Shown here: positions 22,522 through 22,579 of the stretch, piece after piece
Numbering within the stretch: position 1 is the first letter of the stretch
How the letters are laid out: each line of letters starts with the position of its first letter
Source of the DNA: Escherichia coli
Lineage (GTDB): Bacteria; Pseudomonadota; Gammaproteobacteria; Enterobacterales; Enterobacteriaceae
Length of the DNA stretch: 64,000 nucleotides
Strand: one strand, 5' to 3'
Assembly: GCF_044324875.1 (NCBI RefSeq)
Contig: NZ_CP172185.1
Notes under the pieces: model-generated
Seen by the model: the letters and a program-made list of their open reading frames with translations, nothing else
What the model was told of the DNA's origin: nothing
Database searches by the model: none
Made by a program: the position numbers and the translations under genes

Positions 22522-22579
22522 TATGATAATCCCGGCAGTGACAGCATCCTCTGGTATTTAAGGATGCTGTCCGGAAACA

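Follow-up and report, generated by a model that had tools for sequence, protein, structure and literature searches.

A stem-loop between pilS and pilT of a thin-pilus operon as a candidate RNA element at the 3' end of the pilin message

Behind the major pilin gene of a thin-pilus operon in Escherichia coli, a hairpin separates pilS from the genes for its assembly partners. Does this hairpin act on the pilS message, and would it do so by ending transcription or by protecting the transcript? At 20096–25788, the minus strand of the window (the 64-kb stretch of DNA that was analysed) encodes the distal genes of a thin-pilus (type IVb) operon of the R64 type, followed by the shufflon and an rci-type recombinase. 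The gene order on this strand, pilQ-pilR-pilS-pilT-pilU-pilV-shufflon-rci, bears out an earlier note in naming the gene upstream of the hairpin pilS. The PilS of the window shares 98.9% identity with a protein that is annotated in IncK2/Z plasmids as 'type 4 pilus major pilin'. The pilS-pilT spacer comprises 58 nt (22522–22579) and is one of the few true intergenic gaps in the operon, right behind the most heavily needed gene. The parts of the locus are as follows.

25788–24268, minus strand: pilQ, ATPase (open reading frame list)
24332–23166, minus strand: pilR, platform protein (open reading frame list)
22580–23116, minus strand: pilS, major type IVb (thin-pilus) prepilin, 178 aa (open reading frame list, PilS alignment)
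22582–22580, minus strand: pilS stop codon, TAA
22572–22579, minus strand: 8-nt spacer between the pilS stop and the hairpin, UGUUUCCG (direct reading)
22540–22571, minus strand: core RNA hairpin; 5' arm 22571–22560, loop 22559–22552 (AAAUACCA), 3' arm 22551–22540
22522–22539, minus strand: 18-nt spacer between the hairpin and the pilT ATG, ACUGCCGGGAUUAUCAUA (direct reading)
22045–22521, minus strand: pilT, lytic transglycosylase, 158 aa, the first cistron past the hairpin (open reading frame list, annotation of the near-identical locus L001)
21382–22032, minus strand: pilU, prepilin peptidase (open reading frame list, L001 annotation)
20096–21385, minus strand: pilV, tip adhesin (open reading frame list, L001 annotation)

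Structure of the pilS-pilT junction

On the coding strand, the junction reads UAA, UGUUUCCG, GACAGCAUCCUU-AAAUACCA-GAGGAUGCUGUC, ACUGCCGGGAUUAUCAUA, AUG. A strong Shine-Dalgarno sequence (SD; AGGAG) precedes the pilS ATG. The pilT ATG at 22521 (minus strand) is preceded in the 18-nt spacer by a weak SD-like GGGA at 22533–22530 and then an AU-rich stretch. The earlier note had described a 10-bp stem at 22540–22571. This stem exists, with arms GACAGCATCC and GGATGCTGTC at 22540–22549 and 22562–22571, and is somewhat stronger than described. A repeat finder returned a perfect 11-bp inverted repeat (22540–22550 and 22561–22571) with the arms 10 nt apart, and in the minus-strand RNA a U-G pair (22560 with 22551) extends the stem to 12 bp with an 8-nt loop and a predicted stability of −19.5 kcal/mol. 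Eleven of the pairs are thus Watson-Crick pairs and one is U-G, and 6 of the 12 are G-C. The antisense strand was predicted at −16.9 kcal/mol. The hairpin had been placed about 10 nt past the pilS stop; it does lie just downstream, but since the TAA occupies 22582–22580 the exact distance is 8 nt. It ends 18 nt ahead of the pilT ATG. The tail 3' of the stem (ACUGCCGGGAUU) has one U among its first 8 nt and the site was absent from the output of the terminator scan, in agreement with the absence of a clear U-tract noted before.

The stem-loop between pilS and pilT is real and non-random. From stop to start codon, the spacer had a minimum free energy of −25.5 kcal/mol, compared with −11.3 ± 2.6 for its shuffles (z = −5.5), and none of 500 shuffles equalled it. 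Across the window, perfect inverted repeats with loops of 3–14 nt numbered 13 at ≥10 bp and 8 at ≥11 bp, against 0.85 and 0.15, respectively, expected from dinucleotide shuffles. Within the pil gene block, the hairpin and a shufflon repeat at 19674–19719 were the sole perfect inverted repeats of at least 10 bp. By raw energy the hairpin is not the strongest structure in the operon, a description that we rejected: its site ranked only 8th among the 50-nt windows of the operon, after coding windows with 66–78% GC (the hairpin site has 52% GC). Membership of the REP/BIME family was likewise rejected, as the arm has no second copy in the 64-kb window and no REP consensus. The covariance models of Rfam 15 gave no match over the hairpin, even with E up to 10. 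A GGA (CsrA-type motif) in the window hairpin lies within the paired stem, and the hairpins of relatives do not have it.

Several other inverted repeats were recorded in the window. The most stable local structure of the region (−39.9 kcal/mol) is the inverted repeat at 19674–19719 (CCACACACCGGATTGGCAC ... GTGCCAATCCGGTGTGTGG), in which perfect 19-bp arms are separated by 8 nt; it has the appearance of a head-to-head pair of shufflon sfx-type repeats, only 8 bp apart, just past pilV. At 6147–6184, two perfect inverted repeats overlap (6147–6174, 10 bp; 6153–6184, 11 bp) and share the segment GAGGGCATTGTTCCTCACGGGA; the two predicted hairpins would be mutually exclusive, an arrangement reminiscent of an attenuator or switch. 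Perfect inverted repeats of 10–12 bp with flanking A/T runs, e.g. AAAAACGGGTCACC...GGTGACCCGTTTTT, were located at 39135–39166, 47605–47637, 50768–50793 and 61228–61252, and look like ordinary bidirectional intrinsic terminators.

Distribution of the hairpin and the corresponding spacer in other operons

The 17-kb pil region (17000–34000) was 99.8% identical to E. coli chromosomes, mostly of avian isolates, and a tRNA-Phe gene adjoins the pil cluster (35715–35790, minus strand). On the basis of this chromosomal identity and the nearby tRNA gene, the window most likely represents a chromosomal tRNA-Phe island with an IncK2-like, plasmid-type thin-pilus operon. The 121-nt pilS-pilT junction was identical in about 100 IncK2/Z-type plasmids. 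It was also found in 111 E. coli genome records (96 identical, 15 at 97.5% identity), with 52 chromosomal places, and every listed E. coli genome match sits on pilin and transglycosylase genes. The 97.5% class was sampled by one aligned record (L035), in which both stem arms were intact and the sole spacer difference from the window was a C to A change in the loop. A metagenome scan with flank anchors recovered the window allele 13 times, the loop allele 7 times, the type of locus L003 6 times and nothing else. Across about 200 records of plasmids and genomes and 20 metagenome contigs, this hairpin had only two alleles, and with the stem invariant there was no covariation within the window lineage. 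Since the whole 121-nt junction is identical throughout, the identity of the stem within the lineage is uninformative; recent spread would account for it as well as selection does.

Among thin-pilus operons, two pilS-pilT architectures were found: a tight junction, and a structured spacer of 44–66 nt with a hairpin 8–20 nt past the stop. A tight gap of 9–10 nt and no hairpin characterises R64/IncI1-like plasmids, Yersinia ruckeri pYR10 and probably a Citrobacter plasmid. The earlier note had proposed R64 for comparison, and there the outcome was negative: in R64 (NC_005014; pilS 107425–108039, pilT 106855–107415) the gap is 9 nt (GGAGTTTTA) and an intergenic hairpin is absent. R64 (IncI1) and the window share the order pilR-pilS-pilT-pilU-pilV-shufflon-rci, but the R64 gap is a tight, coupled arrangement and that of the window a 58-nt spacer with a hairpin, and the two PilS proteins are only 26% identical. 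R64 produces functional thin pili. The hairpin is therefore dispensable in principle, and thin-pilus operons do not in general require it. Within the first pilT codons of R64 (L029 37380–37460, minus strand) and of loci L006 and L007, a 7-bp G-rich stem (GGGGGUA-CAG-UACCCCU) was observed, with UUAUUU 5 nt later; an A to G change in L007 retains the pairing (U-A to U-G).

Structured spacers were found in IncK/Z, IncI-gamma/K1 (B/O/K-type), IncI2, Serratia and Yersinia pil operons. In line with what the earlier note had anticipated for homologous operons, hairpins with unrelated stems were present at this place in six or more further pil-operon lineages. Counted as junction types, seven others carry a hairpin in this spacer, and relative to the window stem theirs are unrelated or partly related in sequence.

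L002 and L024: 5' arm AGCGCCC, loop UCCG or CCCG, 3' arm GGGCGCU, tail UUUCC
L003 and L025: 5' arm ACAGCACUCC, loop CUCC, 3' arm GGGGUGCUGU, tail UUCCC
L004 and L011: 5' arm AGCGCCC, loop GCCU or GCCC, 3' arm GGGCGCU, tail UUAUUU
IncI2: 5' arm AUAAGCGCC, loop UUCG, 3' arm GGCGCUUAU, tail UUUUUCC
Serratia L008: 5' arm GCCGGCAAC, loop ACC, 3' arm CUGUUGCCGGC, tail CUCUUUCC
L030: similar to Serratia L008
Y. ruckeri L031: 12-bp stem with the same GCCGG/CCGGC base, tail UUCUCUCU

Every structured spacer folded more stably than its own shuffles (z = −2.4 to −5.5). The hairpins of the relatives lie upstream of the pilT SD and have stems of 7–12 bp, mostly GC-rich, with loops of 3–5 nt. At −19.5, the window hairpin is the most stable of the set (relatives −12.8 to −18.5), and no stem is longer than its 12 bp. 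In none of the 11 variants was the antisense hairpin the more stable of the two, and in 7 of them the sense hairpin surpassed it, owing to G-U pairs; the sense and antisense values in Y. ruckeri were −18.5 and −7.8. This sense-strand bias points to the coding-strand RNA rather than a DNA palindrome.

In a pairwise alignment, the window and L003 hairpins aligned arm to arm and differed by a compensatory C-G to U-A change (CAGCAC/GUGCUG versus CAGCAU/AUGCUG), by a 6-nt loop indel and by the loss of the U run in the window. Four pairs of spacers differ by one substitution each, which falls in the loop in three (window/L035, L002/L024, L004/L011), in the 5' flank in one (L003/L025) and in the stem in none. 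Under uniform substitution, three or more loop substitutions have a probability of about 0.003 (by arithmetic from the loop fractions), although a mutational hot spot in the loop could give the same pattern as constraint on the stem. The pairwise alignment was used for pair counting in place of a MAFFT alignment of all spacers, because the latter set the window 5' flank UUUCCGGA against the post-hairpin UUUCCGGAG of relatives. In that alignment, the window flank at 22572–22579 (UGUUUCCGGA) was matched to the post-hairpin U-tract and SD of L002 and L003 (UUUUCCGGAG), and CCGG recurs 3' of the window hairpin (CCGGGA). In view of these sequences, the window hairpin may have arisen by insertion or duplication beside an old U-tract instead of by in-place remodelling.

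A formula of the TransTermHP style served to score the U-richness of the tails. All relatives scored between −2.6 and −4.8; a score of −2.5 is reached by only 18% of background 15-mers. The window tail (−1.78) was poorer than the window background mean of −2.06, and the window hairpin was the sole variant without a U-rich tail. Because of the U-rich tails in all relatives, their hairpins resemble terminators and the ancestral role behind pilS looks like 3'-end formation. Outside the R64 type, a terminator-like RNA hairpin is the rule at the pilS-pilT position. A PilS-profile scan of the genome collection gave 8 loci only, three of which duplicated known types; distant Desulfovibrio-like loci were left out because the reading frame of the pilin, or where it ends, could not be defined reliably.

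Candidate roles of the hairpin

The strand bias, the turnover of the stems with pairing kept and the U-rich tails of the relatives together suggest an RNA element that shapes the pilS 3' end. We hold it moderately probable that, in the window lineage, this sense-strand element shields the 3' end of the pilS mRNA, causes weak termination at most and raises the pilin message relative to that of pilT-U-V. The hairpin is a stable sense-strand stem-loop, intergenic and 3' of a cistron needed in excess, and pairing was kept while the stem sequence changed between relatives, as would be expected of a stabilising hairpin. From this we infer an effect on 3'-end formation or decay, and hence on protein ratios. 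The polymerase would read pilQ-R-S and then make the stem-loop 8 nt past the pilS stop. As no U-tract follows the stem, most polymerases would probably run on into pilT-U-V, and a small fraction may terminate at the hairpin too. The polycistronic RNA could then be cleaved where it is AU-rich and unpaired, near the start of pilT, and 3'-to-5' exonucleases would trim back and stall at the 12-bp stem. A long-lived pilS-bearing RNA ending at the hairpin would persist while the distal pilT-U-V part decays faster. The predicted outcome is pilin, needed in thousands of copies, in excess of transglycosylase, peptidase and tip adhesin.

The main rival, which we regard as rather doubtful for the window, is a leaky intrinsic (Rho-independent) terminator or attenuator that alone sets the ratio of pilS to pilT-U-V transcripts. 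The sister-lineage hairpins in the same spacer look like terminators (in IncI2 a 9-bp stem with a UUCG loop and a U run, tail score −4.78; −3.94 in L004 and −3.57 in L002), and the window stem itself is adequate in GC (6 G-C pairs of 12) and loop size (8 nt) for one. However, the tail 3' of the 12-bp stem (ACUGCCGG) has one U in 8 and scored −1.78, and a consensus terminator scan did not report the site. A longer stem results when a weak outer pairing, UUCCGG/CCGGGA, is included; UUAUCAU then forms the tail, with a score of −3.44, but the outer helix of this register was matched by 53% of 5'-flank shuffles and is interrupted by a 5-nt bulge. A stabiliser or processing barrier is thus more likely than a terminator in the window lineage, because the U-tract is missing. 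The earlier suggestion of a partial terminator or stabiliser is consistent with the comparative evidence as a whole, its terminator option being the less likely one here. In R64 genetics, pilus formation depends on the genes past pilS as well; if this holds here, any stop at the hairpin must be leaky. It is conceivable, though we put it forward only tentatively, that the lineage rebuilt an ancestral terminator-type attenuator into a longer hairpin without a U-tract, maybe an endonuclease substrate with the stem as 3' cap, so that the ratio would be set via decay here and via termination in IncI2/IncK1-type relatives. The lineage meant is that of the avian E. coli chromosomal tRNA-Phe island and the IncK2/Z plasmids. 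If true, this would be natural mechanism swapping at a single operon position.

That the hairpin is a functionless relic, i.e. an ancestral terminator minus its U-tract whose palindrome survives only through the youth of the lineage, appears unlikely. The junction is identical in plasmids and 96 E. coli records, so stem identity carries no information, and R64 manages without a hairpin; yet decay would not predict a stem of 12 bp and −19.5 where relatives have −12.8 to −18.5, the change relative to L003 is compensatory, and the sole polymorphism spares the stem. We consider control of pilT translation slightly less probable still. In that case UUCCGG right behind the pilS stop (22577–22572) would pair with CCGGGA of the pilT SD region and hide the pilT ribosome-binding site, so that pilT would be translated poorly or only once ribosomes finishing pilS had opened the helix. 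The outer helix is present in the minimum free energy structure of the spacer, analogous helices occur in L002, L003, L008, L031 and IncI2, and the predicted probability of an unpaired pilT SD in the window was 0.02. Against this, a shuffled or random 5' flank gave the same occlusion and stabilisation (window, K/Z, Serratia/Yersinia), the SD paired elsewhere instead, e.g. with AUCUC in early pilT, and masking the first 12 nt past the stop left the SD unfreed in the model. The outer helix was therefore rejected as a specific SD-sequestering or coupling feature of the window, being no better than flank shuffles. In the IncI2 locus L013, two substitutions strengthen the outer helix, and 0.6% of flank shuffles equalled it. 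In this locus (Salmonella p20723-3), GUGCA is changed to GUGAA and UUUAC to UUCAC relative to other IncI2 plasmids, and the strengthened helix surrounds the terminator and borders on the pilT SD; it was the sole hint of a specific outer helix. Very improbable, in our view, is a role of the palindrome as DNA, be it a protein-binding operator, a recombination site or a cruciform. The perfect 11-bp inverted repeat exists at the DNA level, and the site-specific recombinase gene rci and the shufflon are 3 kb from the hairpin. The conservation between lineages nevertheless concerns the hairpin potential and not the arm sequence, the G-U pairs render the structure strand-specific, the arms (GACAGCATCCT) are unlike the 19-bp shufflon (sfx) repeat at 19701–19719 (GTGCCAATCCGGTGTGTGG), and the arm occurs once in the window.

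Known systems and meaning for pilus operons

Stem-loops 3' of a cistron needed in excess, which bar 3'-to-5' exonucleases with little or no termination, act as intercistronic stabilisers, e.g. the REP between malE and malF, the hairpin 3' of papA once papB-papA has been processed, and the stem-loops of the puf operon. In its proposed function, the window hairpin resembles the malEFG REP, papA and puf stabilisers, although it is single-copy and not a REP. It is an ordinary example of a well-known principle that is familiar in pilus operons. For the type IVb operons, the closest described analogue is the element at the tcpA 3' end in the TCP operon of Vibrio cholerae, a putative rho-independent terminator that is said to allow tcpA transcription to exceed that of tcpB and later genes (PMC5207764). 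Both elements lie directly behind the major pilin gene in a polycistronic type IVb operon. What is described for tcpA is a terminator, but the window hairpin lacks a U-tract; moreover, pilS stands in about tenth place in its own operon and not first, and the hairpin has no sequence relationship to the tcpA element. A literature search returned no paper that described a pilS-pilT hairpin, mapped transcripts of R64-type pil operons or reported RNA-seq for the pil genes of IncK or IncI2, and nothing usable on bfpA and lngA stem-loops.

The thin pilus drives liquid mating and the gut transfer of IncI/K-type resistance plasmids, and its formation requires a large excess of pilin over assembly enzymes and tip adhesin. 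Knowledge of a structured spacer behind pilS in most non-IncI1 pil operons aids the design of clean pilS and pilT deletions, the reading of polar effects and the engineering of conjugative vectors. The natural variants, from the window type without a U-tract to R64 without a hairpin, form a convenient series for comparing termination with RNA stabilisation at one operon position.
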